From a virus (lineage: Duplodnaviria; Caudoviricetes), in IMG/VR virus record IMGVR_UViG_3300032007_000017: a DNA stretch of 64,000 bases. One strand, given 5' to 3'. The translations under genes were made by a program, and so were the position numbers. The notes beneath the pieces are model-generated. The model had not been told where the DNA came from. It saw only the letters and a list, made by a program, of their open reading frames with translations, and ran no database searches. Shown here in pieces: positions 754-64,000 of this stretch (the first letter of the stretch is position 1; every line of letters starts with the position of its first letter).

Positions 754-2055
754 ATGCTTTCTTGGCACATTGTAACTGCTGCTACTTATTATGCTGCAGG
801 CACCTATGACGAGAACAAGCTGTACTTCCTGAGCGACACTGGCGAGATCTACAAGGGCGCTCTGCCGTTTAGTGAGGCAATTGCTTTCGTCGATGATACC
901 GCTTCGGGTGCTACTTTCGATACCGAGCTTGGTAAGATCACCAACCCGGCCCGTCGTAAGCTGTACGTCTCCAAGGCGACCCTGGCTGCTAAGACCTATG
1001 ATGGTACTGCTTGGCAGTGGGTCATCCATCCTGTCGTCGCTACTCTCGACGATACCAACACCACCGATCCCGTTTCCGGTAAGGCTGTTGCTGACTACGT
1101 CGCTGACGTTATCGGCGATTCCGAGACCTTCTTCCATGCTGTTGCCTATGATTCCACCTCGAAGGTTCTGTCCTTCACTGGTGGTGAGGACGGCAAGAAG
1201 CAGGTCACTCTGAATGGTCTGGCTTGCCAGATCACCTATGATGATACTACGGGCAAGCTTGCCATCAAGGACAAGGCTGGCACTGAGCTCTCTTCCATCA
1301 ACCTCGACCTCGAGCGTTTTGTGAAGAGTGGTACGTATAATGCCACGACCCGTAAGATCACGCTGTACTTCGATGATGCGAAGACCGACTACGTCGATAT
1401 CGATGTTGCCGACCTGATCAGCATCATTAGCGCTACCGATACCGATAGCGTTGACCTGACTGCTACCAACACCCAGCAGGGCACTGTCCTGAAGGCTGAT
1501 GTCAAGCTGGCCGCTGGTGCTGGTCATACTGATAACCTGATCAAGGTTATTGCTGGCGAGGGTCTGTATGTTGCTCCGACCGATCTGAGCGACTACATGC
1601 AGCTGGTCGATAATGCTACCAATGGTGACATTCTGACGGTTAACGCCAGTGGTCAGGCTGTTGATAGCGGCAAGAAGATCGGCGGCGGCACGATCAGCGT
1701 TGATCATGACGCTAACACCCTGGCTACCGAGGCTGCTGTTGAGGCCATTCGTGCTGCTCTGCAGACCAACATCGATGGCAAGATCGCTAAGGTTGCTGGC
1801 GCTACCGCTGGTAATCTCCCGACCCTGACCAACGATGGTCAGCTCTCCGACAGTGGTAAGGCTATCGGTGGTGCCACTCTGGCTGATACGCCGACTGCCA
1901 ATACCCTGGCTACTGAGGCTGCTGTCAAGAAGTATGCTGACGACCTCAAGACCAACTCCATCGTTCAGGATGTCGCTGCGAATGCTTCTGAGACCACTAA
2001 GGTTGCTAGCGTTAAGGCTATCGCCGATGCTCTCAGCTGGCAGACCACGATGTAA
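754..2055 (+). CDS. Putative virion fibre/decoration protein (Ala/Thr/Asp-rich, internal repeats)
   Basis: RBS AAGGAGG; AACA-N6-TA motif at 690-701; repeats GDILTVNASGQAVDSGK/GNLPTLTNDGQLSDSGK and ANTLATEAAV x2; terminator at ~2082-2112. Confidence 0.55.
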   Translation: MLSWHIVTAATYYAAGTYDENKLYFLSDTGEIYKGALPFSEAIAFVDDTASGATFDTELGKITNPARRKLYVSKATLAAKTYDGTAWQWVIHPVVATLDDTNTTDPVSGKAVADYVADVIGDSETFFHAVAYDSTSKVLSFTGGEDGKKQVTLNGLACQITYDDTTGKLAIKDKAGTELSSINLDLERFVKSGTYNATTRKITLYFDDAKTDYVDIDVADLISIISATDTDSVDLTATNTQQGTVLKADVKLAAGAGHTDNLIKVIAGEGLYVAPTDLSDYMQLVDNATNGDILTVNASGQAVDSGKKIGGGTISVDHDANTLATEAAVEAIRAALQTNIDGKIAKVAGATAGNLPTLTNDGQLSDSGKAIGGATLADTPTANTLATEAAVKKYADDLKTNSIVQDVAANASETTKVASVKAIADALSWQTTM

Positions 2056-2158
2056 TTCACTTACATCAAAAGTCAAACTTATCGAGAGGGACTTCGGTCC
2101 CTCTCGGTTTTTATTGTATAAAAAACAATAAAATAATTTATAGTATAGGGAGGATATT

Positions 2159-2344
2159 TTGATGATCATTGAAGTTCCTTATATGCCTGGTGAATCCAGG
2201 TTTTATTCTGATAAGGGAGTTAAGATCCAAAACAAAAAGACTGGTGAGATCTCTGATGAGATTATCTCCGATGAAAAGCTCGATCCTGCAGATTTTGTTG
2301 AATTGGATACTGCTGTTGACACTGATACTCCTATTGAGGAATAA
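2159..2344 (+). CDS. Small hypothetical protein
   Basis: RBS GGGAGG; AACA-N6-TA motif at 2124-2135. Confidence 0.6.
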   Translation: MMIIEVPYMPGESRFYSDKGVKIQNKKTGEISDEIISDEKLDPADFVELDTAVDTDTPIEE

Positions 2345-2398
2345 TTACACTAAATCAATTCACATCTTATTAATATCCTAAATAAGGAGTGTATTATT

Positions 2399-2968
2399 AT
2401 GCCGTTTTTCTTTAAGTTTAGAGACTGCTTAGAGTCTGAACTCGATTCTCAGTCTTTTATTTCCGGTACCTTCATTGTCACCAGAGATGCTGGTAATTTA
2501 TATTGCGATACATTAGCTGGTGATCGTTTACCTCTTGGACAGGTTGTTCATGTTGTTACTGGCTCTATTAGTAGCATTCTTTATCCTGAAAGTGGTCACT
2601 TCTATTATAGTACCACTGATAAGAATGTGTGCTTCTATTCTGATGGTACCTTCCAGCCGATCAATATGACCGTTGGCTATATTGATTATAAGAATATTCG
2701 TGTACCGGCTGCTGGAAGTGCTAGTGTTGCTATCAATACTGGCTATTCTGGAAGAATCATGTCTGTTGCTACTCTGAAGCTCGATACCGATATCTCGATC
2801 TATGATCTGGATGCAACACAATTTGTCGGAGCTGGTAAAGTTAGAGCTAACGCTGCTGTCAACACCAATGGAAGCTGGTCGATTCCTCTCGTCAACGAGA
2901 ATACCAATTATGATTGGCTTGGTGGAATTACCGCTGTTATCGTTCAGAGAACTGCACTGCCGTCGTAA
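2399..2968 (+). CDS. Hypothetical, probably virion-associated protein
   Basis: RBS AAGGAG; 189 aa; in a late gene cluster. Confidence 0.6.
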   Translation: MPFFFKFRDCLESELDSQSFISGTFIVTRDAGNLYCDTLAGDRLPLGQVVHVVTGSISSILYPESGHFYYSTTDKNVCFYSDGTFQPINMTVGYIDYKNIRVPAAGSASVAINTGYSGRIMSVATLKLDTDISIYDLDATQFVGAGKVRANAAVNTNGSWSIPLVNENTNYDWLGGITAVIVQRTALPS

Positions 2969-2980
2969 AGGGTGATATAA

Positions 2981-3709
2981 ATGGCTGAAAGACTTCCCAG
3001 TTTCGTTAAACGAGATGGTGAGTCCATCATATTCAATGAAGATGGAGAATTTATCTTCTATGTATATGATGAATTCTTTCAAAAAGAATATGCACAAGTT
3101 AAAGGAGATCTAGTTAATCTAATTGGTATCCTTGACTATGCTGTTTTCGATAAGAATGGTAAGAATAGTGGATTGAAGAGATTTTATTTCCCTTCTGTCT
3201 TTCTTACTAGACCTTATTCCATGGAAAAGATGAAAAACGTGAAGCTCACGAAAACTCAAGAGCCTCGCGACTATAGACTTCTTAGATATAAGAAAGGTGA
3301 TGCTATCATTGTCACTACAAAAGTTCCTCAAGAACTTCGTAGTGTGGAGGACTTTTATAAAGTCTTCTTATATGGTAAGCTTCCCACCACAATTCCTTAT
3401 GGAAAACTTCAAGATTACTTCCCTAAGAATATTGCCTTAAATGGCGGTAACTATGGAGTTAATCTTCAAGTATTCGGAATGGTTATAAGTGAAACATGTA
3501 GAGATCCTAATGACTTAAATAAGCCCTTTAGGATGACAAACTTTACAGATGAGACAGCTTATAAACCTATTTCGATTATTGATGTACCCAAATACATCTC
3601 TCCGCATCAATCTCTTACTTCCCAAAACTGGGATAGTGCTATTGTTGGTGCTATTATGCATCCGACTGATGTTGATTCTCCTTTGGAGAAGCTTGTTATG
3701 GGTCAATAA
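2981..3709 (+). CDS. Putative virion RNA polymerase small subunit (beta-prime C-terminal region)
   Basis: YFPKNIALNGGNYGVNLQVFGMVISETCR and SIIDVPKYISPHQSLTSQNWDSAIVGAI...SPLEKLVMG align by eye with the bacterial beta-prime C-terminal motifs ([47 protein letters not shown]). Confidence 0.55.
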   Translation: MAERLPSFVKRDGESIIFNEDGEFIFYVYDEFFQKEYAQVKGDLVNLIGILDYAVFDKNGKNSGLKRFYFPSVFLTRPYSMEKMKNVKLTKTQEPRDYRLLRYKKGDAIIVTTKVPQELRSVEDFYKVFLYGKLPTTIPYGKLQDYFPKNIALNGGNYGVNLQVFGMVISETCRDPNDLNKPFRMTNFTDETAYKPISIIDVPKYISPHQSLTSQNWDSAIVGAIMHPTDVDSPLEKLVMGQ

Positions 3710-3734
3710 GAAAAAATAAAGCCATCAACAAATT

Positions 3735-3875
3735 GATAAAGGACCAGCCAGTCCTGGTCCTTTATCTTTATTCATAAGCTTGTCGACTTAAGCTCATGAA
3801 TGATCCGATCGTCTAAACAAACCGGGATAGCTAAACGATCAGGAAGACGGGTAGCAGAAATGCTACCCGTCGTTC
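3735..3875 (+). other. Multi-hairpin non-coding unit between two promoter motifs (candidate sRNA or leader)
   Basis: AACA-N6-TA at 3727-3738 and 3901-3912; four consecutive stems including GACGGGTAGCA-GAAA-TGCTACCCGTC. Confidence 0.4.
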
Positions 3876-3980
3876 TATCTATGCCTCATTGCTGAAGTTT
3901 AACATAGCAGTAAAGCACAAATACCACATTAAGTATGTCATTTTTGTGGCTTAAAATTTGTTATAAAGGAGGAAACTTCC

Positions 3981-18377: not shown

Positions 18378-18440
18378 TTCCTCCTTTATAGTGATAGAGT
18401 ACTGCCAATACCCTACACTATTATAATATGTAACCAAATG

Positions 18441-27255: not shown

Positions 27256-28365
27256 ACCACACATATTGACTTGAATATCAACAACTTCACCGTCATAGGT
27301 TTTAGGCATCAGATTATCGGGTTTAACCCTAGAAATGACACCTTTACCCCCATAGCGGTTGGTCAACTTGTCGCCAGCACACGCTTTGATATTTTCAACA
27401 ACGGTAATGGTGATTACAGTACCGGAGAATACCCTCTCATTCAAGAACTTATCACCTTTCAGCTCTGCTTGACAATTGCTGTAAAGCTTCTGAAGGTCAT
27501 AAGTCATAGATACATGAGATCCATCTCCACGATATTGATCTACTACATCAACAATTTCTTGGCACATACGCATATGCTCTGCATGATACCTAGCAATCTG
27601 TTGATAGTAGATCTCATCAAAGACTTCAGGATTATTACATTGCACATCAATATCGACTACTTTACCAAAGACGGTAATCTTCTCGTCAGACATAAATGCA
27701 GTAGACAATCTATTGAAGTCTTGAGAATAGAATGCTTCTTCTTTTTTCTCTTTGCGAACAGCACAGAGAATATCATCTTTTGTCATCTCTCCAATATCAG
27801 GAAAGATCTTATAATTATTTGCATCGCCAAAGAGATTCAAAGGAATATCATTTACGTTGAAAGTGATATTAAACTTATGGATCAAAGGAGATGCAAGCTT
27901 TTCAGAGGCTGATTCAGAGATAATGATAGAGTCTTCCATTGTCTCTTCAGAAGCATTGAAGAGAACGAGAAGATTCTTACCATCCATTCTGTTATTGTAT
28001 TCATCAAATGCTCTTGATTTGTGAAGAACGGTTCCCTTAGGAACCCCTCCTCCAACTACAATAGCATCAAGCTCTGTATTATCATTGATGTATCCAAATG
28101 TTTCAGTAATATGCTGATATTCGGATCTTTCAATAACATCAAGCTTTTTACCACTCTCATCTAAGAGAATGATATAGTAGTGATCATAAGGACGAGAACT
28201 ATACTTAGGAATAATTCCTACTGCAGTATAATCCTGATCTGCTATTCTAAAAGAAGATGAATACTGACCAAACTGATTTTCAAAACCAGTAGATACATAG
28301 GGGACATCTGGATTACATAATGCCAATCTCTGCTCAAGGTTAGTTGAGAACATTAACTTCCGCAC
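27256..28365 (-). CDS. Non-virion RNAP beta subunit C-terminal part, exon 2
   Basis: RKLMFSTNLEQ, GKNLLV, EDSIIISES, GDKLTNRYGGKGVISR. Confidence 0.9.
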
Positions 28366-28560
28366 CATATTCTATAGTATTGTAAAATACTCTAGTTCCT
28401 AGTTCACTGAATCCCTACTAGTTTAATACTAGATTTCTTATACTAATATTTCCGGAAGTTACACAAAAATACTAATATAAGAGCGGAATTCTCCGAAGGC
28501 TTAAACTCCCATGTATGGATCATGGTACATAAACACAGCAAAGTATAGAGAACTCTTTAC
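28366..28560 (-). ncRNA. Putative TnpB omegaRNA scaffold
   Basis: Directly downstream of tnpB: TATGTACCATG..CATGGGAGTTTAAGCCTTCGGAG..long hairpin..GGGATTCAGTGAACTAGGAA; resembles right-end RNAs of Firmicute TnpB elements as I recall them. Confidence 0.65.
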
Positions 28561-28564
28561 TTAT

Positions 28565-29821
28565 TTATGCTATGTCTTTAAGTAAGAGTGTTTCTCTTCC
28601 CTCGGAAGTAACTAGGGGTTGTTGATATGCCAAATTCCGTAAATTATAAGCGGCATTAAGGTCTCGATCTTCTGTATATCCACAAATTGGGCATACAAAA
28701 GTTCTATAGCCATTAATATAGTAACCCTTAGATCCACAATGACTACATTGTTTTGAAGATGGAAAATATTTATTAGCAGTAATGACAGGAATATTTCTCC
28801 ACCTAGCTTTATACTTTAGCTGACGATGTATTTCACAATACATCATTTGATCATTATATGATCGTAAAGCATAATTATTGTGAAGCTGTTCATTAACAGA
28901 AATCGACTCGATTACTATTGCTTCTGGATTTCTATCAACAATTTCTTTTGTGGCTTTATTGATGTCATTTTTGCGTATATTTACCATCTTTTTAATGAGC
29001 TTAAGGCGTTTATTTTTTCGCTTATAATGATTTATAGATTTTGGCACATCCTCGTACTTGGTTCTCGTAGCGAGTCTGATCTTATTATACTTTTCATAAT
29101 CCTTACTTAATCTACGATCTAATTTTCTTCTACGTTGCTCAAGCTTTGATGTATCAGTAAATTTGTAGAATTTACCATATGAAGTTGTGATCATATTTAT
29201 AAGTCCTACATCAATACCAACAGGTTCAGTTTTTGGTTTATCTTCCATAGAAATATGTGTTTTATCATAATTTTCATATGAAGCCCCAAACCAAAAATTC
29301 AATCCATCATAATGAACTGAACAACGATAGAATTTGGTTCCTTTAGGAATTTGATGATCTTTTGCAAGTACCTTCAAATCCTTAATACCAGAAATGCTAA
29401 TATAATCTCCTATAACCCTAGTTCTATCGTGTCTAGGAGAAAAAGACCTGGATTTATATTCATTTTTTCTAGACTTAAACTTTGGGTATCTGTTTGGATT
29501 CGATTTATCAAAAAATCCTTGGAATGCTTTATCTAGATGGTCAAGGGTTTCTCTCATACATCCAACAGTTGATTCCTTAAGCCATTTATATCTAGAATCA
29601 TGATTCCGCATATTAGCAAATTTTGTTATTAGATCATAGTAGCTAATGTATGGATTTCCATCAGCATGATTATTATTTTGTATCTCAAGACCAAGATTAT
29701 AGATAGCTCTAGCCAATTGAATTTGGCGCATAAGCTGTTTTGCTTGCTCTTCTGTAGGATAGAGCTTAATTCTGACGCCTACAAGATTTTCCTCATTTAC
29801 ATTAGGTGGTTTTCGACCCAT
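28565..29821 (-). CDS. tnpB: TnpB RNA-guided nuclease
   Basis: HTH KLYPTEEQ, YPKFKSRK, RuvC-I GIDVG, RuvC-II IVIESI, Zn finger CSHC..CPIC, RuvC-III DRDLNAAYNL; RBS AAAGGAGG before ATG 29821. Confidence 0.93.
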   Translation of the reverse strand: MGRKPPNVNEENLVGVRIKLYPTEEQAKQLMRQIQLARAIYNLGLEIQNNNHADGNPYISYYDLITKFANMRNHDSRYKWLKESTVGCMRETLDHLDKAFQGFFDKSNPNRYPKFKSRKNEYKSRSFSPRHDRTRVIGDYISISGIKDLKVLAKDHQIPKGTKFYRCSVHYDGLNFWFGASYENYDKTHISMEDKPKTEPVGIDVGLINMITTSYGKFYKFTDTSKLEQRRRKLDRRLSKDYEKYNKIRLATRTKYEDVPKSINHYKRKNKRLKLIKKMVNIRKNDINKATKEIVDRNPEAIVIESISVNEQLHNNYALRSYNDQMMYCEIHRQLKYKARWRNIPVITANKYFPSSKQCSHCGSKGYYINGYRTFVCPICGYTEDRDLNAAYNLRNLAYQQPLVTSEGRETLLLKDIA

Positions 29822-30215
29822 CGAATACACCTCCTTTCTATAATGATTTACATATTAGTACGATGAATATTATTTTACAATACTTTCGAACACCTTTGTC
29901 TATATTCGCAACTTATAGACCCTTTCGGCTCATACTTTCATATGAGTGGAGATCATTTGTTCATCCTATTTCTAGGAGTCGGATTTTTCTTCCACCATAA
30001 GCTTGTGGTTCTACTCTCCCGCAAGGAGATGATCGTTGAACCTTCACCATGCTAATCGTTTAGGTGAGTGGCTGCTAAACATCCCAATCTCTATACTTTT
30101 TATATCCATCACGCTTATCGTTTCCAATTACGTTGTGGATATAGAGCTCTAAGGGATATGTCAAAGCAATTAACCCGAAGTACTTATAGATTACTCTATA
30201 AGCAGTGCGCTATAC

Positions 30216-30320
30216 ACCGGAGTTTGTGCAGTTGAATGGCATTAAGGTTCCTTTACCAAAAAGATGTTCTGGTGTAGGAAGTGGTGCATTTCTAATCTGT
30301 TCTACAAGTTCACTTGCCAT
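30216..30320 (-). CDS. Non-virion RNAP beta subunit C-terminal part, exon 1 (35 codons; spliced protein ~778 aa)
   Basis: RBS AAGGAGG, then MASELVEQIRNAPLPTPEHLFGKGTLMPFNCTNSG; absent from the ORF track. Confidence 0.85.
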
Positions 30321-30438
30321 GATTTATTCCTCCTTCATGTATTGTGCAGTTGAATGGCATTAAGGTTCCTTTACCAAAAAGATGTTCTGGTGTAGGAAGT
30401 GGTGCGCTTCTAATCTGTTCTACAAGTTCACTTGCCAT
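30224..30438 (-). repeat. 97-bp tandem duplication of the RNAP beta-C gene start
   Basis: 30224-30320 and 30342-30438 differ at 2 nt; each copy has its own RBS. Confidence 0.95.
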
Positions 30439-30522
30439 AATGAAATCTCTCCTTACATGTGTGCGTCATTTAAGAAGAAGCCAGTCTAGAAATGTGTCTA
30501 TTTCTAGACTGGCTTTTGATTA

Positions 30523-50627: not shown

Positions 50628-50804
50628 ATGGTCACTAATTCAGAGAATAAAAGTACAACTCTTATATCCGATTGGATTGATAGTTTACCGTATGATAGGA
50701 AACCTAAAATCCTTTCATTTTCAAGAATTACACAAAAGGAATTCTCTGTTATTAATTCTCCTATTAAAATCAAAGAAGATGTAAATCATCATCTCTTTGG
50801 ATAA
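50628..50804 (+). CDS. Small hypothetical protein (58 aa)
   Basis: RBS AGGAG, then MVTNSENK; followed by a terminator. Confidence 0.5.
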   Translation: MVTNSENKSTTLISDWIDSLPYDRKPKILSFSRITQKEFSVINSPIKIKEDVNHHLFG

Positions 50805-50806
50805 AA

Positions 50807-50834
50807 GAAAAGGGCTTCGGCCCTTTTCTTTTTT
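50807..50834 (+). terminator. Intrinsic terminator (identical copies at ~52910 and ~56474)
   Basis: GAAAAGGGC-TTCG-GCCCTTTTCTTTTT. Confidence 0.85.
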
Positions 50835-50912
50835 GTCATATATAGGAATTATAATTGCATATTATTATTGTGATGATGGCCAAACAAAAATTTATAAAAG
50901 GAGGAATTTACC

Positions 50913-52190: not shown

Positions 52191-52908
52191 ACTATTTCTC
52201 TGCCCGAAAGACTATAAACCCAATTTCTACGATGGAATCAAAGATGACTGGGATGAAGATGACTGGGATGTCGTATTTACTGAGAAAAAGACTCATAATA
52301 AAGCATTCATTTGCTTGAGTTATGAATCCAGTGTTAATGAATACGGCACTGCGCTCAAAAACCTTGCAGTGCGTTCCAAAGCAACCAAATTTAATTCCTA
52401 TAAACCCCAAGCTCCGTTCGAAACTAACTCCGTCATGCATATTGATGTAGAAGGAATAGAAAGAGCAGCGATTCCTTGCACTGGAGTTGAGCCCTTTGGT
52501 AAGGGAGATATTAAGTCTGATGAGCTTAGACAGTTTATTTATAAACTCGTCTATGTTGATCTCGACAAATTCAAAATCTATGCTCCGTATCTTCCTATGA
52601 TTGGAAAGCCTGAATTTATCAAAGACGATATGTCTTGGGATCTCTTTGCAAATCATCTCAATATCCCTGGCGTCGAATATATCAATGAAACCAAATTCAG
52701 GATCGATGGTATCGAGTATACAGACGAAACTCTAAAAGAATGCCCACGTTACACCGAGCTATTCATAAGGATTCTATATCATGTATACGCAGACGACTAT
52801 ATATTCATCAAAACCACGAAAAACGACCAGGAAAAACTTCCTGTGTTTGGTGATTTTGAAGATTATAAATGGGAGCCTGAACACATGGTAACAGTAATCT
52901 GCATTTAA
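52177..52908 (+). CDS. Hypothetical protein
   Basis: Likely start MPTIK after GAGGAGG. Confidence 0.65.
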   Translation: MPTIKLFLCPKDYKPNFYDGIKDDWDEDDWDVVFTEKKTHNKAFICLSYESSVNEYGTALKNLAVRSKATKFNSYKPQAPFETNSVMHIDVEGIERAAIPCTGVEPFGKGDIKSDELRQFIYKLVYVDLDKFKIYAPYLPMIGKPEFIKDDMSWDLFANHLNIPGVEYINETKFRIDGIEYTDETLKECPRYTELFIRILYHVYADDYIFIKTTKNDQEKLPVFGDFEDYKWEPEHMVTVICI

Positions 52909-53023
52909 AGAAAAGGGCTTCGGCCCTTTTCTTTTTTGTAAAATATAAAAAATCTATAACAAAATAATAGTTTAATTGCAGAAATGCAATAACCCCACAT
53001 TTTATTTTGGAGGAATCATCATC

Positions 53024-55312: not shown

Positions 55313-56473
55313 ATGAAATACTTCAAAGAAGGACTTAGTTCCGAGGAATTAAAGCGCGAGTATCGAAAGCTTGCAAAGCAGTACCACCCCGATCTCAATA
55401 AGCAGCAGGACACTACCGATATCATGAAAGCGATCAATCAAGAATACGACACGTACTTTACTAGTATTCGTTACTGCGAAATCGGGTATAACCCCGATGA
55501 TATCAAAGCGAGCTATGAGAGAGCTCGCAAAGAACGTGAAACAATTTTGGTATTCCTGCGTAGGGATAAGAAGGAAGGCGGCAAAAACTGGTTCACTAAC
55601 AATCGTTACGGAAAGATTGTTAGCGATGACAGTGAATCCTGGAAAGGCTTCCATGGAGGATTCTCGGTTGTAGAGTTAACTCGTGTCGTTGAAGGTGAAA
55701 GGTCCTTTGTCGACATCATGTTTAACGAGTATTCAAACGTAAAGGAGCAAAAAGCTCGGCGTATTCCAATGAATATTACTTTCCCATCATATGCCGAGAT
55801 GTACTTTGGCCTCCAATATGGAGCTTTTGGAAACTCCACGGATTTGACCACTACAGCTACAGCACCGATCAAAAATGCTCGTATGGATGAGTATGATGAT
55901 TATATTCACATTCGTCATAAGATTTATGGTGATATGTGGATCACAAACCAGGGCCGTATAACTCCATCTTTGTTCGGACCTGTAACTAAGCAGTATCGTA
56001 CTGGATATATGACATGCGGGAACCGCATTATGGAATGCGGAGTTCCGAATATCGGCGAATATGAAGTTGTTGAGAAGGTCAACGCTGATGAATTTGGATT
56101 TCGTGCATTTCAGGATTGTTCCAAAGCGGAATTCGAGAAATATCATGATACAGAATTTCATAAATTTCATAAAGCACTCGGTTGCAAAGAAATCACGCGA
56201 AACAGATATGGTGAGTGGGATTCATTATGGTGGATCGATGATCCCACTGTTAGTTACTTTGCCCGTAAGGGCATCGTAAAGTTTTATCAGTCCGAATATA
56301 ATTTCAAAATGCGGTATGGTGTATTCGATATGGATAGCTTAAAGAAAAACATCCATTTAATCACCATTGAAGAGGCTGAGATTATTCAGGACTTCCTGGA
56401 TGACCTCTATAGGGACTTTGATGATCACGTGAAAGCGATGATCAAAAAAGGAAAGATAAAGATCAATATCTGA
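55313..56473 (+). CDS. J-domain (DnaJ-like) protein
   Basis: ELKREYRKLAKQYHPDLN; start MKYFK after AAGGAG. Confidence 0.8.
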   Translation: MKYFKEGLSSEELKREYRKLAKQYHPDLNKQQDTTDIMKAINQEYDTYFTSIRYCEIGYNPDDIKASYERARKERETILVFLRRDKKEGGKNWFTNNRYGKIVSDDSESWKGFHGGFSVVELTRVVEGERSFVDIMFNEYSNVKEQKARRIPMNITFPSYAEMYFGLQYGAFGNSTDLTTTATAPIKNARMDEYDDYIHIRHKIYGDMWITNQGRITPSLFGPVTKQYRTGYMTCGNRIMECGVPNIGEYEVVEKVNADEFGFRAFQDCSKAEFEKYHDTEFHKFHKALGCKEITRNRYGEWDSLWWIDDPTVSYFARKGIVKFYQSEYNFKMRYGVFDMDSLKKNIHLITIEEAEIIQDFLDDLYRDFDDHVKAMIKKGKIKINI

Positions 56474-56544
56474 GAAAAGGGCTTCGGCCCTTTTCTTTTT
56501 TATCTTGAACTTTTTAGTAATACTTGAATTAAGGAGGAACTACT

Positions 56545-57643: not shown

Positions 57644-58807
57644 TTAAGTATAATATTGAATAATACAAATACCATCTCCACCATCATGAATCATAATTCC
57701 AGCACCTTGTATAAGACCACTACCTCCACCACCAAATCCAGCAGAATGGCAATTTTCTCCTCCTTTTCCATAACTAGCTCCACCCCCACAATAGTTTCCT
57801 CCTTTGCTAAAATATCCACCTCCACCACCAAATACTTCTCCACCATCTCCGCCTCTTCCATATCCACCACCTCCACCACTAGCCGCACGCCAACCAGTAC
57901 TACTACCAGTAGAATAAGACCAATATGTACTATTTCCTCCATTTCCACCATAACCCCCACCACCTCCTACTCCGCTATATGATACCTGCTGAGTGCTATA
58001 ATTTCCTCCACCACCATTACCGCCGAATCCTCCCCCTCCTCCACATATTCCATTTTTATTTGATACATTTTTGGTACCCAATAATCCCCAACCTCTACAA
58101 TCACTAGGAACACGCGAATTACTCATAGTATTTGTTCCATTAGTTGCTGATTTTGTATTATTACCTCCATTACCTCCATAAGTACCACCAGTTCCACCAG
58201 TATATAAAGCTCCACCACCACCTCCATAAGTACCACCACTACCACCAGTAGCATAAGTGCCACTACTTCCTCCACCTCCTCCCCATGTTCCTCCAGCACC
58301 TCCATATTCTCCCCCTCCACCGCCAAACTGATATCCTATCCCTCCACCACTAGATCCACCTCCACCGCTTCCACCATTACCACCATATCCATATGTATGA
58401 GAACCACCGCTACTATCTTGTATTGATCCTCCTTTTCCACCATTGGCACTTAGATTACTACTACCACATATAAAAGAAGATGTACCACCGGTTGTTCCAT
58501 TATAATAATTGCTACTAATCGAATAATTATTTCCTCCTCTTCCAATAATAATATTTGCAGTGTTTCCACTTTTAATATCAAATTCTCCATTATTCATCCA
58601 TCCTCCGCCTCCACCAGCCATAGCAATATCTGATGATAACCATCCAATTCCAGCCCCTCCACCTCCAAATATTCTTACACTAATATTTCCAGTATGCTGT
58701 GGTATAACCCAATTATTTGTATTGGATATTATAACTTCTGTTTTTAAAACACCAGTACCCCCACCAGATCCAGAACCACCTCTACGAGAAATTATACCTT
58801 CAGACAT
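57644..58807 (-). CDS. Glycine-rich protein, paralogue A1
   Basis: MSEGIISRRGG...GGDGICIIQYYT; GGxGG repeats. Confidence 0.8.
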   Translation of the reverse strand: MSEGIISRRGGSGSGGGTGVLKTEVIISNTNNWVIPQHTGNISVRIFGGGGAGIGWLSSDIAMAGGGGGWMNNGEFDIKSGNTANIIIGRGGNNYSISSNYYNGTTGGTSSFICGSSNLSANGGKGGSIQDSSGGSHTYGYGGNGGSGGGGSSGGGIGYQFGGGGGEYGGAGGTWGGGGGSSGTYATGGSGGTYGGGGGALYTGGTGGTYGGNGGNNTKSATNGTNTMSNSRVPSDCRGWGLLGTKNVSNKNGICGGGGGFGGNGGGGNYSTQQVSYSGVGGGGGYGGNGGNSTYWSYSTGSSTGWRAASGGGGGYGRGGDGGEVFGGGGGYFSKGGNYCGGGASYGKGGENCHSAGFGGGGSGLIQGAGIMIHDGGDGICIIQYYT

Positions 58808-58811
58808 AAGA

Positions 58812-58900
58812 AATGCACCTTCCTTGTGAGGAAGGTGCATTATATGCGCCCTCCTCGAATTTGTAGTTTTTAACTACACTTCCGGGGGGGGGGGCAAACT
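58812..58900 (-). promoter_or_regulatory. Structured leader with G11 tract and SD-sequestering hairpin (homologue at 62234-62318 with G10)
   Basis: CCCTCCTCGAATTTGTAGT..AACTACACTTCC-G10/11-CAAA repeated; SD inside a 12-13-bp hairpin. Confidence 0.7.
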
Positions 58901-58958
58901 GAATAAGGTTACCCCTATAATTATGATTCATCTTCATATTAGATTATACTCTTTTCTT

Positions 58959-60257
58959 TTAAGTATAATATTGAATAATACAAATACCATCCCCACCATT
59001 CCCACCAACATCTCCCCATCCTCCACCTCCAAACATTCCAGTTTTATGACCACTGTTTCCTCCCATTCCATATCCACCACCGCCTCCTCCTCTCCCACCT
59101 GAACTTCCGCCTCCAGGAGCAAAATATCCACCTCCACCTCCACCACCATTTCCGCCTTTAGCTTTTTTTCCATATCCTCCCCCACCCCCACCACCTTCTG
59201 TAGTTCCTTCTCCGCCATCTCCGCCATATCCACCACCTCCACCTCCACCACCATTACCCCAAGTTAAAGCACTGCAATAGGCATTTCCTCCATTGCTACC
59301 ATATCCACCACCTCCACCTCCACTTACCATAATATGATACCAAGTATCTTCATCATGTTCTACATAAGTATTTGTATATGAACTACCGCCATTTCCGCCA
59401 TATCCTCCCCCTCCTCCATAATTATTGCCTCCTCTTCCTTCTCCTCTTAATAATACTCCTCCTACATTATCTACATTAGTCCAAGTAGAGGTATTAGTAC
59501 CATCTTGAGAATTAGTAAAATTATTATTTTTACTATTATATATTCCACCGTTTCCGCCATAAGTCCCTCCTCTTCCACCATTAACGCAAGCAGAGATATT
59601 TGAGTATAAAGATATGCTCGTGATCCTAATACTTCCTCCCCCTCCTCCACCATAAGTTCCTCCGTTTCCACTTAAACTAGTTTTGAGATTATTTCCACCA
59701 AGTTCACTAATATGTATATATCCACCACCTCCGCCTCCATAAGTTCCTCCATTTCCACCATACCAACCTCCTCCCCCACCACCCCATATACCACCATTGC
59801 CTCCAGATCTATTTCTATTAATATCAAAATGTGTTTGGCCTCCTCCCCCAAATTGGTATCCACTTCCTGCATTAGGTCCTCCACCTCCAGATCCTCCAGA
59901 TCCTCCAGTTCTAGACTCTCCACCCCCTCCTCCATTGGCACTTAAATAACTACCAAAAGAAGTAGTGCCACCACTATTACCTCCAGCACTTTGATTTTTT
60001 CCAGAATTTCCACCTAACCCAATTTGTACTGATATATTGGTTCCATTAGGAATATCAAATTCTCCATTATTCATCCATCCTCCTCCCCCTCCTCCACAAT
60101 TGCCGCCTCCACCTCCACCACCAAATAATCTTACACTAATATTTCCCTTATGATCAGGAACAGTATAAGTTTGTGATTCAAATATCATATCCGTAAATAA
60201 TGCGCTTCCTCCTCCTGATCCGCTTCCTCCTCGCCGACTGATAACCGCCTCACTCAT
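58959..60257 (-). CDS. Glycine-rich protein, paralogue B1
   Basis: MSEAVISRRGG...GGDGICIIQYYT; in-frame upstream extension open to 60476. Confidence 0.8.
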   Translation of the reverse strand: MSEAVISRRGGSGSGGGSALFTDMIFESQTYTVPDHKGNISVRLFGGGGGGGNCGGGGGGWMNNGEFDIPNGTNISVQIGLGGNSGKNQSAGGNSGGTTSFGSYLSANGGGGGESRTGGSGGSGGGGPNAGSGYQFGGGGQTHFDINRNRSGGNGGIWGGGGGGWYGGNGGTYGGGGGGYIHISELGGNNLKTSLSGNGGTYGGGGGGSIRITSISLYSNISACVNGGRGGTYGGNGGIYNSKNNNFTNSQDGTNTSTWTNVDNVGGVLLRGEGRGGNNYGGGGGYGGNGGSSYTNTYVEHDEDTWYHIMVSGGGGGGYGSNGGNAYCSALTWGNGGGGGGGGYGGDGGEGTTEGGGGGGGYGKKAKGGNGGGGGGGYFAPGGGSSGGRGGGGGGYGMGGNSGHKTGMFGGGGWGDVGGNGGDGICIIQYYT

Positions 60258-60929
60258 ATATTTCAGCACTCCTTTCATTTTCGAGGAGAGCGCTGACAAA
60301 ATTAAGAAGAAGTAGCAATTCCTTGCTACTTCATATTTATTACAGTCTTCTTTATCATCAATCCTATTATCAAGATGATTACTCTCTAGATCTCTATATC
60401 GATTACTATTATCAACCCCATGATAATAGTCATACTGTCGTCTTCTTCTCTTCAACAATAACAAGATAATTGCCACCTCCTTATTGTAGAATATATTTCT
60501 ATATCTATATCAAATAAATTTATTTTTTACAAAACTTCGCATATATGGGAATTTATAAGAAACGGCGACCCGTTTGATAGCATCCACCCTGCTATCGTTC
60601 GAGTCGCCGTCGCCGTTTTGTAAATGAATTTTCTTTATACTTTCTCTTAGTAAATATAAAGAAAAGAAGAGACATGACCCGAAAGTCATGTCTCTTATTT
60701 AGATTACATTTATTAGAAGAGATAAATGTATTAAGAAAAGGCAAAGATATACATGGAGTTACCAAGCCTTAAAGTTTCAGATAAGAGACACCTCTCTCCT
60801 CCCACCTCCCTATCATCCTAGGGGGGGGGGCATCTCAGGTTGTCTGTTGTAGAAAACTACCTTTCTCTGGCCTGGGAAACTCCACTTTCTTTATCTGAAT
60901 GTTTAAAGTGTTGAAAAATATTACAATGA

Positions 60930-62228
60930 TTAAGTATAGTACTGAATGATACAAATTCCATCTCCACCTCTATGCCATGGATAAGAAATCCAAGTAGACT
61001 CACTATTTGATCCACCTCCACCTATACCGGCGCTTACCATATATTCTGCTCCGTTTCCATAACTACCTCCACCTCCTAAATATTCATTATTTCCATCTCC
61101 TCCTTTTCCATACCATCCACCTCCACCACCTCCATTATTTCCACCACGCGCTGTTTTTCCATATCCACCACCCCCACCACAATTAAATCCTCCATCTCCA
61201 CCATATCCACCACCTCCGCCTCCACCCCAATAATTATTATATGCATCTCCTCCATTACTTCCATATCCCCCACCGCCTCCACCGCCAAATGCTCCTCCAT
61301 TCCCTCCATTTCCGCCAAATCCACCACCTCCGCCTCCACCGCCTTGATAACTATTTTTACCATTTACTCCACCTCGTCCTCCTTTTCCCCATCCTCTTAA
61401 ATATTCTCCAGTAGCTGGATCTTTATCTACATTAGTCCAAGTAGAGGTATTAGTACCATTATTACCATTTGTAAAAACTCCTTTATAAGAATCACTTCTA
61501 TAATATCCTCCATTCCCTCCATTTCCACATAATCCAGAATTACCCTCAGAACTATTTTGCGTATTAATACATCCACCATATCCTCCTTTATCTCCTTTTT
61601 TTCTATAGATGCTGGCACTACCACCCCCTCCCCCTCCACCACCATAATACCCGCCATTTCCACCATTTGACCATCTATCTTCATCATCTACTGCTCCTCC
61701 CCCTCCACCTCCGCCATAATATCCGCCATCTCCTCCAGTACAATACCTCCATGTTCCTCCACCACCTCCTCCACCATAAGTTCCTCCATTTCCGACATAG
61801 AATCCACTTCCTCCGCTTCCCCCGCCACATTGAAAATTACTTCCACCACAATTTGCTCCCCCACCGCATCCTCCTCCATCTCCACCACCATTTGCTGACA
61901 CATAACTACCAAAGGAAGTAGTTCCTCCAGCTTCAGAACTCATTATTCCGCCTTTACCAACAACTATTTCTATTTCTTGACTAGGAATAACTTCTATTTG
62001 TTGTATATTTACATTTCCTCCATTTCCAGATTTCCATCCATATCCTCCTGTATTATAAGTACCAAAAGCTCCTGCTTGACCTCCTCCGACACATATAACT
62101 GTAATAGTATTATTTTTAATATTTTTTGGAATAATAAAATTAGTATTTCCGAAAAATGATTGTGTGATTAATTCTCCACCGCCACCAGATCCAGAACCAC
62201 CACGTCTAGAAATTACTGCCTCTGACAT
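60930..62228 (-). CDS. Glycine-rich protein, paralogue A2
   Basis: Same termini as the paralogues. Confidence 0.8.
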   Translation of the reverse strand: MSEAVISRRGGSGSGGGGELITQSFFGNTNFIIPKNIKNNTITVICVGGGQAGAFGTYNTGGYGWKSGNGGNVNIQQIEVIPSQEIEIVVGKGGIMSSEAGGTTSFGSYVSANGGGDGGGCGGGANCGGSNFQCGGGSGGSGFYVGNGGTYGGGGGGGTWRYCTGGDGGYYGGGGGGGAVDDEDRWSNGGNGGYYGGGGGGGGSASIYRKKGDKGGYGGCINTQNSSEGNSGLCGNGGNGGYYRSDSYKGVFTNGNNGTNTSTWTNVDKDPATGEYLRGWGKGGRGGVNGKNSYQGGGGGGGGFGGNGGNGGAFGGGGGGGYGSNGGDAYNNYWGGGGGGGYGGDGGFNCGGGGGYGKTARGGNNGGGGGGWYGKGGDGNNEYLGGGGSYGNGAEYMVSAGIGGGGSNSESTWISYPWHRGGDGICIIQYYT

Positions 62229-62367
62229 ATAAAAGTCACTCTCCTTAGAGGAGAGTGACTAATAGCACCCTCCTCGAATTTGTAGTGTTTAACTACACTT
62301 CCGGGGGGGGGGCAAATTGACTAATATGAAGATGAATCATAATTAGATACCCCTTTATTTAAAAGAT

Positions 62368-63594
62368 TTAAGTATAGTATTGGACAATGCAGATACCATT
62401 ACCACCTCTACCAGGATATACTCCAGAAGTAGCATTACAAGCTCCTCCACCAGCTCCTATACCACCATTTTTTCCATTACCAATAGTAGTATAAATTGTT
62501 CCATGACCACCATTTTCATAACCTCCCCCTCCACCTCCATCACTTCCGCCACAACTAAAATATCCTCCGCCACCTCCACATCCGCCTCCTCCACTAGCTC
62601 CTTTTCCATATCCTCCACCTCCACCACTTCCAGATTGTGAAGAATCCCCACTACTACCATTTCCTCCATTTCCTCCATATCCACCACCACCTCCACCAGC
62701 AGGATAAGTTGTAGATGTATATGATCCTCCATCTCCACCATATCCTCCTCCCCCACCATATCCATACCAAGAACTGTTTTTATACCATCCATTTCCTCCA
62801 TTTCCTCCAAACCCTCCTCCACCACCAAATGCATGATTTGCAGTATTTATTACATTGCTTGAATTTCTCATATATCCTCCTCTTCCCCATCCTCTTAAAT
62901 ATTCTCCTGTCTTAGGATCTTTATCTACATTAGTCCAAGTAGAGGTATTAGTACCATCGGTAGCATTAATACTGAGATTTCCTCCATTTCCTCCATAAGT
63001 ACCACCTATTCCTACATTACTACTATACATCCCACATCCTCCACCACCTCCATATGTTCCACCATTCCCACCATTACCATATCCTCCCCCTCCCCCTCCA
63101 TAAGTACCACCATCTCCACCATTTCCATCGCATCCTCCTCCTCCGCCACCCCATATTCCTCCGCCCCCACCATGTGTTCCTCCTCCTCCTCCAAATTGAT
63201 ACCCATACCCACCATTTGACTTACCTCCCCCACCACTACCTCCATTGCCACCAGTTCCAACTGATCCTCCCCCTCCTCCATTAGCACTTAAAAAAGTTCC
63301 AAATGTTGTTGTTCCACCACTACTACCACCATAAGCGTCATGCCCATTTAAACCTCCATTTCCTATAGTAATACTTACAATAGTCCCATTAGCTATATCA
63401 AATTCTCTATTATTCATCCATCCCCCACCTCCCCCACCACGTCGAGCTCCTCCACCTCCACCTCCAAAAATAAATACGCTAATATTTCCTATATGAGATG
63501 GAATAGCATAAAGATTATTTTGCCTAATAATATCAGTGTGCAACTCTTTTCCGCCAGATCCTCCACCACGCCTACTAATTACCGCCTCACTCAT
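62368..63594 (-). CDS. Glycine-rich protein, paralogue B2
   Basis: Same termini; in-frame upstream extension open to 63711. Confidence 0.8.
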   Translation of the reverse strand: MSEAVISRRGGGSGGKELHTDIIRQNNLYAIPSHIGNISVFIFGGGGGGARRGGGGGGWMNNREFDIANGTIVSITIGNGGLNGHDAYGGSSGGTTTFGTFLSANGGGGGSVGTGGNGGSGGGGKSNGGYGYQFGGGGGTHGGGGGIWGGGGGGCDGNGGDGGTYGGGGGGYGNGGNGGTYGGGGGCGMYSSNVGIGGTYGGNGGNLSINATDGTNTSTWTNVDKDPKTGEYLRGWGRGGYMRNSSNVINTANHAFGGGGGFGGNGGNGWYKNSSWYGYGGGGGYGGDGGSYTSTTYPAGGGGGGYGGNGGNGSSGDSSQSGSGGGGGYGKGASGGGGCGGGGGYFSCGGSDGGGGGGYENGGHGTIYTTIGNGKNGGIGAGGGACNATSGVYPGRGGNGICIVQYYT

Positions 63595-64000
63595 ATATTT
63601 CAACGCTCCTTTTCTTGAGGAGGGCGCTGACAAAATTATAAAGAAGTAGCATCCCATGCTACTTCTTTCTTTCTTTCTATATCCATTAGATGATAACAAC
63701 AAGAATGCCACCTCCTTGTCTATATTTATATACCTATATCATTTAAATACCCTTAAAATGCACGATAAAAATCCTATACCATTCTTGGTATAGGATTGTA
63801 ATGTCATATTCAATATAACAAAGATCAGTTATTAGTATTCTTTACATTATTCCTAAATAAAGAATATTAATAAAAATGATTAAAGAGAGAGATTAGAATG
63901 ACATTCATCTTATATCCAAGATAAAATCTCACCCACCTCCTCTCTCCTCCCTAGGTAACTAGAGCGAAAATGCTCTTCTATTATGGGCCTTCCTTAGGGG

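Follow-up and report, generated by a model that had tools for sequence, protein, structure and literature searches.

Organization of the locus

The locus described here lies in a virus genome sequence of the IMG/VR database (IMGVR_UViG_3300032007_000017, Caudoviricetes), of which a stretch of 64,000 nucleotides (nt), hereafter the window, was analysed. The gene for the C-terminal half of the beta subunit of the non-virion RNA polymerase (RNAP) appears there in three pieces, separated by two introns named W1 and W2. The larger one, W1, holds a tnpB gene followed by an omegaRNA-like region, with no tnpA transposase gene seen beside them, and it is proposed below to be an IStron that spreads by RNA-guided homing. 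Coordinates are positions in the window, with the genes of the RNAP region all on the minus strand (Table 1).

Table 1. Features of the interrupted RNAP beta gene and of its introns, in the order of transcription
Feature	Position	Strand	Remarks
Exon 1 remnant copy	30342-30441	-	own ribosome-binding site (RBS); 97% identical to 30224-30323, period 118
Exon 1	30320-30214	-	36 codons; ends ...AACTCCGGTGT (...CCGGTGT); matches intron-less alleles L030 and P0122
Predicted target-adjacent motif (TAM), GGTGT	30218-30214	-	last five bases of exon 1
IStron W1, whole, group-B register	30214-28365	-	rule from PMC4227781; spliced product unchanged
IStron W1, whole, register first proposed	30213-28364	-	1850 nt; predicted IA2 group I intron
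Internal guide sequence GCGCACUG	30210-30203	-	read from the sequence; pairs contiguously with ligated exons CGGUGU|GC (P1 + P10)
IA2 ribozyme core, P2 to P9.1	30202-29885	-	predicted by alignment, RNAalifold and homology to introns passing Rfam gathering
Inverted-repeat (IR) stem, 5' arm AGUAUUGUAAAAUA	29884-29871	-	after P9.1; perfect 14-bp complement of 28389-28376
tnpB	29821-28565	-	418 amino acids (aa) from ATG, 8 nt after AGGAGG; 421 aa from the listed GTG start
omegaRNA region	28564-28364	-	~200 nt after the tnpB stop, to the last intron bases
omegaRNA scaffold	28530-28365	-	covariation-supported
Pseudoknot arm 1, loop CCAUA of stem-loop 1	28518-28514	-	predicted by complementarity to the intron end
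IR stem, 3' arm UAUUUUACAAUACU	28389-28376	-	complement of the 5' arm; alternative local hairpin
Pseudoknot arm 2, UAUGG	28369-28365	-	last intron bases; includes the terminal G of the group-B register
Predicted guide GCGGAAGUUAAUGUUCUC	28363-28346	-	first ~16-18 nt of exon 2; start uncertain by 1-2 nt; from the scaffold end and CboIStron
Exon 2	28363-27254	-	370 codons; Pfam RNA_pol_Rpb2_6; begins GCGGAAGTTAATG (GCGGAAG)
W2	27253-26853	-	401 nt, without ORF; flank GGTGT, end ATATGGT; site CGV|YGRE
Exon 3	26852-25733	-	373 codons

Joined, the three pieces of the host gene give a protein of 778 aa that is colinear with homologs encoded by a single open reading frame (ORF), namely AR9 g089 (annotated as the C-terminus of the non-virion RNAP beta subunit), the product of an IMG/VR contig and hundreds of metagenomic proteins of 730-760 aa. 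Since the joined protein is colinear with these homologs, the host is, judged by sequence, a distant AR9/PBS1-like jumbo phage of ~270 kb from the gut, and a TnpB of identical sequence was found on a contig of 270,305 bp. The insertion at site 1 splits the gene at NSGV|RKLMF, and the ligated reading matches exactly the intron-less homologs L003 (51% identity) and P0122 (81%) and the same-species alleles P0249/L030. The ligated exons have the length and the frame of the intron-less allele, from which the window diverges by 3.68%, with changes in three of the 778 amino acids. When IMG/VR was scanned with exon 2, the sole match was one distant intron-less locus, and no relative was found there with the TnpB of the window.

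Ribozyme core and splice register of W1

The anatomy attributed to W1 in an earlier note made from the sequence alone (a group I core, an IR stem looping out tnpB, an omegaRNA reaching the 3' splice site and no transposase within the element) was borne out by Pfam searches, RNAalifold, shuffled controls and covariation. The 5' part of W1 is, on these grounds, an IA2 group I ribozyme predicted to be self-splicing. In particular, its core is ~72-81% identical to introns of Staphylococcus, Bacillus and Clostridium phages, and two phage introns homologous to it pass the Rfam gathering threshold (77 and 50 bits). With four relatives, including the elements of phages c-st and Romulus, RNAalifold recovered P2, the long-range P3, P6, P7.1, P7.2 and P9, and compensatory changes were found in 20 of the 64 core pairs of this alignment. 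P7 covaries by inspection too (GAUCAU/AUGAUC in W1, GACUAU/AUAGUC in c-st). At the gathering threshold, Rfam returned nothing over the whole window; the group I model did not match W1 itself, and an E-value search over W1 gave chance snoRNA-like matches only, as the model copes with neither the 1.4-kb insert nor the divergence of the IA2 core. The sister intron W2, which has 61 identical bases in common with W1, was matched by Rfam Intron_gpI over the full model, with a score of 33.5 bits (E-value of 8e-7) that lies below the gathering score of 50.

The 3' end of W1 reads ...AGAATATGGT directly before GCGGAAG, and a GT is common to both junctions, so that three equivalent registers lead to one spliced product. 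P1 is formed by CGGUGU/GCACUG, with its U-G pair adjoining the loop AUAGC. The internal guide is different in each element (GUAUGCACUG in W2, UAUGCGC in contig L016 and GUGC in L025), and this retuning from site to site supports a functional P1/P10 in W1. According to Tourasse et al. 2014 (PMC4227781), IStrons of group B splice after a G, their U-G pair having moved one base into the intron, beside the loop. Under this rule, the junctions of W1 would read GGUG|U...AUAUGG|U and the terminal base would be a normal G, whereas the register first proposed keeps the U-G wobble but ends in a U. The spliced product predicted at the outset is retained, the same in either register, and the terminal U would be replaced by a terminal G one base over, which is present only in the group-B register. 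Two other registers were rejected, namely one whose 5' exon would end in GGU, as L016 has GGC at that position, and one built on the GG core (after CCGG to ATATGG), in which two bases are deleted and the frame is shifted.

The IR stem that loops out tnpB is AU-rich (12 of its 14 pairs), and none of 3000 shuffles reached a stem of 14 bp, the maximum being 11. In the equivalents of c-st, Romulus and L016, the sequence of the stem differs and the pairing is kept. Its length is one pair below the range of 15-34 bp published for canonical group B, for which the layout of direct and inverted repeats is known (PMC4227781). Moreover, an AGUAUU direct repeat upstream of the 3' IR arm can instead form the local hairpin AGUAUU-UUAC-AAUACU. 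The long-range IR stem and the local 3' hairpin are, by prediction, mutually exclusive folds of the intron and of the omegaRNA, respectively.

TnpB and the search for a transposase

Three Pfam domains were identified in the TnpB of W1 (HTH_OrfB_IS605, OrfB_IS605 and Cas12f1-like_TNB), and the protein aligns to the solved TnpB of ISDra2. Its RuvC residues (D204, E305 and D387) and zinc-finger cysteines (C359, C362, C377 and C380) do not vary among 33 relatives showing 33-58% identity, and no difference in the whole protein was seen among the 8 contigs read that encode it. The highest identity was found with the TnpBs of contigs L016-L018 (55-57%); it was ~31-32% with those of the Romulus/Fi4S2 type and 28% with ORF B of c-st. 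By analogy, this protein would cleave DNA in an RNA-guided and TAM-dependent manner.

The tnpB gene is the sole ORF within W1. A tblastn search with the serine TnpA of phage c-st gave nothing in W1 or in the window, the search for Y1 transposases being confined to the intron. Furthermore, six related loci share the layout of ribozyme, tnpB and omegaRNA, and no TnpA ORF was seen in any of them. A tnpB of the clade of the window without a ribozyme was not seen in any relative examined. The wider search among related phages that had been suggested for this locus found tnpB-bearing cores, HNH-bearing cores and intron-less alleles. Related cores with HNH or other homing endonucleases and without TnpB were those of L005, L006 and L007 (Bacillus phage Internexus and Staphylococcus phages BE22 and CF5), and CF5 presented four Rfam-positive introns within ~1.1 kb.

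OmegaRNA scaffold with the predicted guide and TAM

The omegaRNA scaffold begins with AUGUA, stem-loop 1 (CCAUG-AUCCAUA-CAUGG), GAGUUUAAGCC and an outer stem enclosing two hairpins, and it continues with UGAACUAGGAAC, a terminal hairpin and the final UAUGG. The 5' module (AUGUA, stem-loop, GAGUUUAAGCC and UUUGGAG) is common to the c-st IStron CbISt3, the portal-gene element of Romulus, the element of Fi4S2, the Bacillus phage LY4 and five metagenomic relatives. Over nine sequences, 95% of the cells of the stem-loop, the outer stem and the pseudoknot were paired, compared to 78.5% in shuffles, with changes on both sides in 10 of the 14 scored pairs, while slid controls were 17-46% paired. The column-wise scoring of the pseudoknot was restricted to three pairs because of a one-base offset of c-st in the alignment, and its full complementarity was assessed locus by locus. 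Thus, the loop CCAUA pairs with the element end UAUGG in the clade of the window, CGAUAC with GUAUCG in c-st, CCGUA with UACGG in Fi4S2 and CCAUG with CAUGG in Romulus. The omegaRNA region of the c-st IStron (L001:5573-5634) matches the Rfam family RAGATH-18 with 61 bits, above gathering, and this family gave no match to the omegaRNA of the window.

In CboIStron, the pseudoknots PK-1 and PK-2 were mapped experimentally, with PK-2 overlapping the bases of the 3' splice site and the guide starting immediately after (bioRxiv 10.1101/2023.11.20.567912). Because the covarying pseudoknot of W1 takes the scaffold to the last bases of the intron, as in CboIStron, the predicted assignment of the guide to the 3' exon (exon 2), already put forward in the earlier note, is supported. 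Sequence conservation among the relatives reaches the 3' splice site and ends there, and the first 18 nt of exon 2 are identical in all the W1-carrying strains.

A TAM at the end of the 5' exon had likewise been proposed, and the flanks of the related elements support it, with GGYR(T) as the predicted motif. The flank GGTGT of W1 at site 1 recurs before W2 and the element of L017, both at site 2, as well as before the element of L019 in another gene, upstream of a radical-SAM activase gene beside it. In addition, GGCGT precedes the element of L016 at site 2 and GGCAT that of L025 in a fourth gene. The resulting consensus is GGYRT across four independent insertion sites, with GG at positions -5/-4; this GG is not due to P1 pairing, being unpaired in L016. 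By comparison, W1, W2 and the elements of L016-L019 and L025 all terminate in (A)UAUGG, with a U or a C next. The own end of W1, ATGGT, differs from its flank at -5, -4 and -3, and the occupied allele would be spared because ATGGT, unlike the flank, precedes the target there. The ligated junction of the intron-bearing strain corresponds to GGTGT followed by GCGGAAGTTAATGTTC.

Allelic states and signs of recent movement

The alleles were compared on metagenomic contigs, each state recurring in independent samples. Three allelic states were found within one phage species, in which RecA, RNAP and ligase are 96-98% identical in nucleotide sequence. Both introns are absent from L030, L031, L032 and L033, only W1 is present in L012, L013 and L029, and both introns are present in the window and in L014. 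Moreover, a single sample, DRR595539, yielded a W1-bearing contig (L015) and a W1-less one (L032). Between the window and L012, only 3 mismatches were found over 1572 nt of the intron, compared to 41 over 1110 nt of exon 2 (Fisher P-value of 3.7e-13); W1 is ~18 times less diverged than the flanking exon. Since the intron has far fewer mismatches than the adjoining exon 2, it is much younger than its surroundings.

Around site 1, the window and the intron-less allele show 8 differences (at -6, -3, 0, 1, 3, 7, 9 and 15), all of them synonymous, and this tract coincides exactly with the predicted TAM and target. The intron-less alleles L030-L033 present the flank GGAGT followed by CAGAAAGCTCATGTTT, with 6 mismatches to the first 16 positions of the guide, and P0122/L027 departs from the target at 4 of its first 16 positions. 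An empty site 1 with both the TAM and an exact match to the guide was not found among the close relatives and collections searched.

In addition, a tandem duplication with a period of 118 bp was detected, comprising the RBS and the first ~100 nt of the RNAP gene, whose upstream copy stops 10 nt before the insertion site. This remnant copy has the Ser-11 codon and the RBS of the intron-less strains, while in the functional copy residue 11 is Asn and the RBS is another one. The duplication is probably a scar of intron acquisition, in which donor exon sequence would have accompanied the intron and the left side would have been joined illegitimately. Within the duplicated exon 1, the Ser/Asn polymorphism is the point at which the contigs L034 and L035 end.

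As in homing introns, W1 is present or absent at one site among close relatives and is flanked by tracts of differences. Taken together, the allelic states, the low divergence of the intron, the flanking tract and the duplication suggest recent homing, with the intron still moving between phage genomes.

The sister intron W2 is absent from L012, L013, L029 and L030, and the empty site was seen in the DNA of L012, L013 and L030. A tract of synonymous differences from the intron-less allele also surrounds site 2, from -6 to +57. W2 has a GT at both junctions, as W1 does, and its IR is closed as a hairpin of 16 bp with a short loop. Three jumbo-phage contigs (L016:2560-4372, L017:~2055-3900 and L018:1-1792) have a full TnpB IStron at site 2 of the same RNAP gene, with the TnpBs closest to that of W1. 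Because site 2 holds full TnpB IStrons in these contigs, W2 is best read, from its sequence, as an IStron from which the ORF was deleted, like BcISt1 copies without ORFs.

Comparison with known IStrons and phage introns

W1 resembles the IStrons of group B in its 5' IA2 ribozyme, in having ORF B inside a long AU-rich IR stem, in the direct repeat upstream of the 3' IR and in the U-G predicted atop P1 beside the loop. The members of this group include BcISt1, CbISt1-4 (two of them on phages c-st and D-1873) and CsISt1, which has ORF B only (PMC4227781). ORF A is often missing from them, and the derivatives that lack ORFs retain just the IR hairpin, as in W2. The core of the c-st copy is ~80% identical to W1 over 110 nt; the copy in question is CbISt3, whose OrfA and OrfB lie downstream of the matching part. 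The assignment of W1 to group B is made by sequence, on the homology of ribozyme and omegaRNA to CbISt3, which carries TnpA_S. On the other hand, canonical group-B elements lie after a GG (AGGG, TGGG, GAGG) and terminate in CGG, while those of the W1 clade lie after GGYR(T) and end in UAUGG(U). W1 also differs in host (an AR9-like gut phage of ~270 kb) and in target (the RNAP beta gene), and the serine-recombinase TnpA associated with group B has no ORF or tblastn match in W1 or the window and was not seen in the six related loci.

CboIStron, from C. botulinum BKT015925, is like W1 in that the loop of the nexus stem-loop pairs with the 3' end of the scaffold over the bases of the 3' splice site. 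As predicted for W1, its guide is the 3' flank and its TAM the 5' flank, its own end resembles the TAM yet differs from it, and the folds for splicing and for the omegaRNA are mutually exclusive. Unlike W1, CboIStron encodes TnpA_S and transposes, with TGGG as TAM and UCGG as scaffold end. Its TnpB restores excised copies, whereas no excision enzyme is seen in W1, where homing would therefore be from allele to allele only.

Among phages, the Twort-like phages of Staphylococcus have TnpB-only IStrons annotated as 'transposase' in essential genes, namely the portal gene of Romulus and Remus and an SbcD-like gene of Fi4S2. The elements of Romulus and Fi4S2 share with W1 the order of ribozyme, tnpB and omegaRNA without TnpA, the 5' omegaRNA module and the covarying pseudoknot, and they differ from it in their ends (CAUGG or UACGG), in their GG-type flanks and in the phage family. 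According to Birkholz et al. 2024 (PMC11620839), the RNAP-gene intron of the jumbo phage PhiPA3 with the HNH endonuclease gp210 is mobile, and this nuclease acts on co-infecting relatives, as is proposed for that of W1. The target of gp210 is recognised through protein contacts, in contrast to W1, whose nuclease would be guided by RNA and reprogrammed by the exon that follows.

The novelty suggested for such an element in the earlier note was not upheld. ORF-B-only, ORF-less (with the IR hairpin kept) and phage-borne (c-st and D-1873) group-B IStrons were catalogued in 2014 (PMC4227781). The cleavage of empty sites by IStron TnpB-omegaRNA, homing and the antagonism between splicing and omegaRNA were reconstituted in 2023 (Zedaveinyte et al., bioRxiv 10.1101/2023.11.20.567912), and a 2026 review stated that TnpA-less IStrons could spread through intron homing. 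The concept is thus already published, and the locus of the window is a well-documented instance of it. What is new here comprises the covarying pseudoknot tied to the 3' splice site, the GGYRT flank, W2, the three allelic states, the young intron, the differences in TAM and target and the 118-bp scar.

Proposed mechanism and alternative explanations

We consider W1 to be a non-autonomous, TnpA-less IStron of group B (IS607-related) that spreads by RNA-guided homing, with a probability of about 0.6. Reasoning from the homology to CboIStron, we propose two mutually exclusive fates for the primary transcript of the RNAP beta gene. In one of them, the long-range AU-rich stem would return the 3' splice site to the core, and splicing would restore NSGV-RKLMF at little cost to the phage. 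In the other, the 3' end would fold locally into stem-loop 1, the outer stem, the terminal hairpin and the CCAUA/UAUGG pseudoknot, and TnpB would bind this omegaRNA and retain the first ~16 nt of exon 2 as a guide. The complex would then cut a co-resident intron-less copy of the gene reading 5'-GGYR(T) followed by GCGGAAGUUAAUGUUC, sparing the intron-bearing allele, which has ATGGT ahead of the target. During co-infection, repair from the intron-bearing genome would copy the IStron, together with short exon flanks, into the cut genome.

Several points weigh against this mechanism. Splicing, omegaRNA processing, TAM and cut are all predicted for W1. The known intron-less alleles would not be cut, because of their mismatches to the guide and their GGAGT flank, and no current natural substrate was seen among them. 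The clustered differences around the insertion site may fit donor co-conversion as well as selected resistance, or both. The allele evidence comes from metagenomic contigs, though the alleles recur in independent samples. Furthermore, the window covers 64 of ~270 kb, and a TnpA or a free-standing homing endonuclease may be encoded elsewhere and act in trans; the arrival of a TnpA-less element at four different sites is unexplained by homing.

These last two points bear on an alternative that we regard as unlikely, in which a TnpA serine recombinase supplied by the phage or host genome would mainly mobilise the IStron and TnpB would only guard against its loss, as in autonomous IS607 IStrons. 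Relatives at no fewer than four different sites go beyond what homing alone would give, the GG at -5/-4 recalls the GG target of IS607 TnpA, and the GT common to the two junctions of either intron is reminiscent of a crossover dinucleotide. However, L019 has no such common dinucleotide and L025 only a single common base, and no TnpA_S homolog was found in the window or in the six related loci; genomes with truncated copies were also without an intact ORF A (Tourasse et al., PMC4227781). Moreover, neither tracts of donor exon sequence nor a duplication of exon 1 would result from transposition. It is also improbable that TnpB is no longer a homing nuclease, being either inert or engaged in, for example, the tuning of RNAP splicing, so that the intron would spread by ordinary recombination during co-infection or by reverse splicing. 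The ORF-less W2 is likewise polymorphic with a flanking tract, so such signs need no nuclease encoded in cis, and in CboIStron the TnpB and the omegaRNA fold repress splicing. On the contrary, the invariant RuvC D-E-D and zinc-finger residues over 33 diverged relatives, the identity of the protein on every contig read that carries it and the omegaRNA architecture, kept by compensatory changes that include the guide-adjacent pseudoknot, argue against this, and the TnpB IStrons of L016-L018 at the site of W2 could have driven the spread of W2 before its ORF was deleted.

A further reading, in which tnpB and omegaRNA would form a separate insertion sequence (IS) nested in a terminal loop of the intron, with its own ends and an intron-derived guide, is largely refuted and was given very little credence. 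It would agree with the location of the cargo in the loop of a stem that W2 closes with a short loop, and with the HNH or other endonucleases that related cores hold at the same place. Nevertheless, the intron's very last bases take part in the pseudoknot and covary with it in four lineages, and the same layout was experimentally validated in CboIStron. The earlier note had named a tnpB block with IS ends of its own among the cases that would speak against an RNA-guided intron; instead, the conserved sequence of the relatives extends as far as the 3' splice site and not beyond it, and no relative examined has a tnpB of this clade without the ribozyme.

IStrons and TnpB homing are established, so far in elements of bacterial Clostridia with a present or past transposase, while the locus of the window is a natural phage system in which the transposase is absent, the target is essential and highly conserved, and close strains have 0, 1 or 2 introns. 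Its TnpB clade has a predicted GGYR(T) TAM, unlike the characterised TGGG and TTGAT types. In addition, the natural alleles, either predicted to be sensitive or naturally mismatched, make the homing of a TnpA-less IStron directly testable, possibly as a weapon of phages during co-infection. More tentatively, and with considerable doubt, the TnpA-less IStrons of this clade of gut jumbo phages could be elements of both RNA-guided homing and interference, whose TnpB, programmed by the following exon, would cut the RNAP beta gene of intron-less competitors during co-infection and thereby convert or cripple them; the intron-less alleles of the same samples would be escape variants through synonymous changes in TAM and target. 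On this reading, the locus would parallel the PhiPA3 gp210 system with an RNA-guided nuclease and would show, in nature, the spread of TnpB without any transposase.

Other features of the window

The RNAP gene is preceded by a RecA/UvsX-like gene (31785-30523, minus strand) and followed by a gene for an NAD-dependent ligase. Further away, four paralogous ORFs of 398-505 aa (57644-63711, minus strand) have glycine-rich repeats of the GGTGG type (families D1-D14) together with conserved non-repeat blocks. A terminator-like hairpin, AAAGAAAAGGGCTTCGGCCCTTTTCTTTTTT, was found in three near-identical copies (50804-50853, 52907-52956 and 56471-56520). Finally, an AT-rich intergenic motif of 25 nt (TTCACTATTATAATATGT...) recurs at positions 18414, 33233, 37830 and 43052, and it may be a promoter element of the phage.

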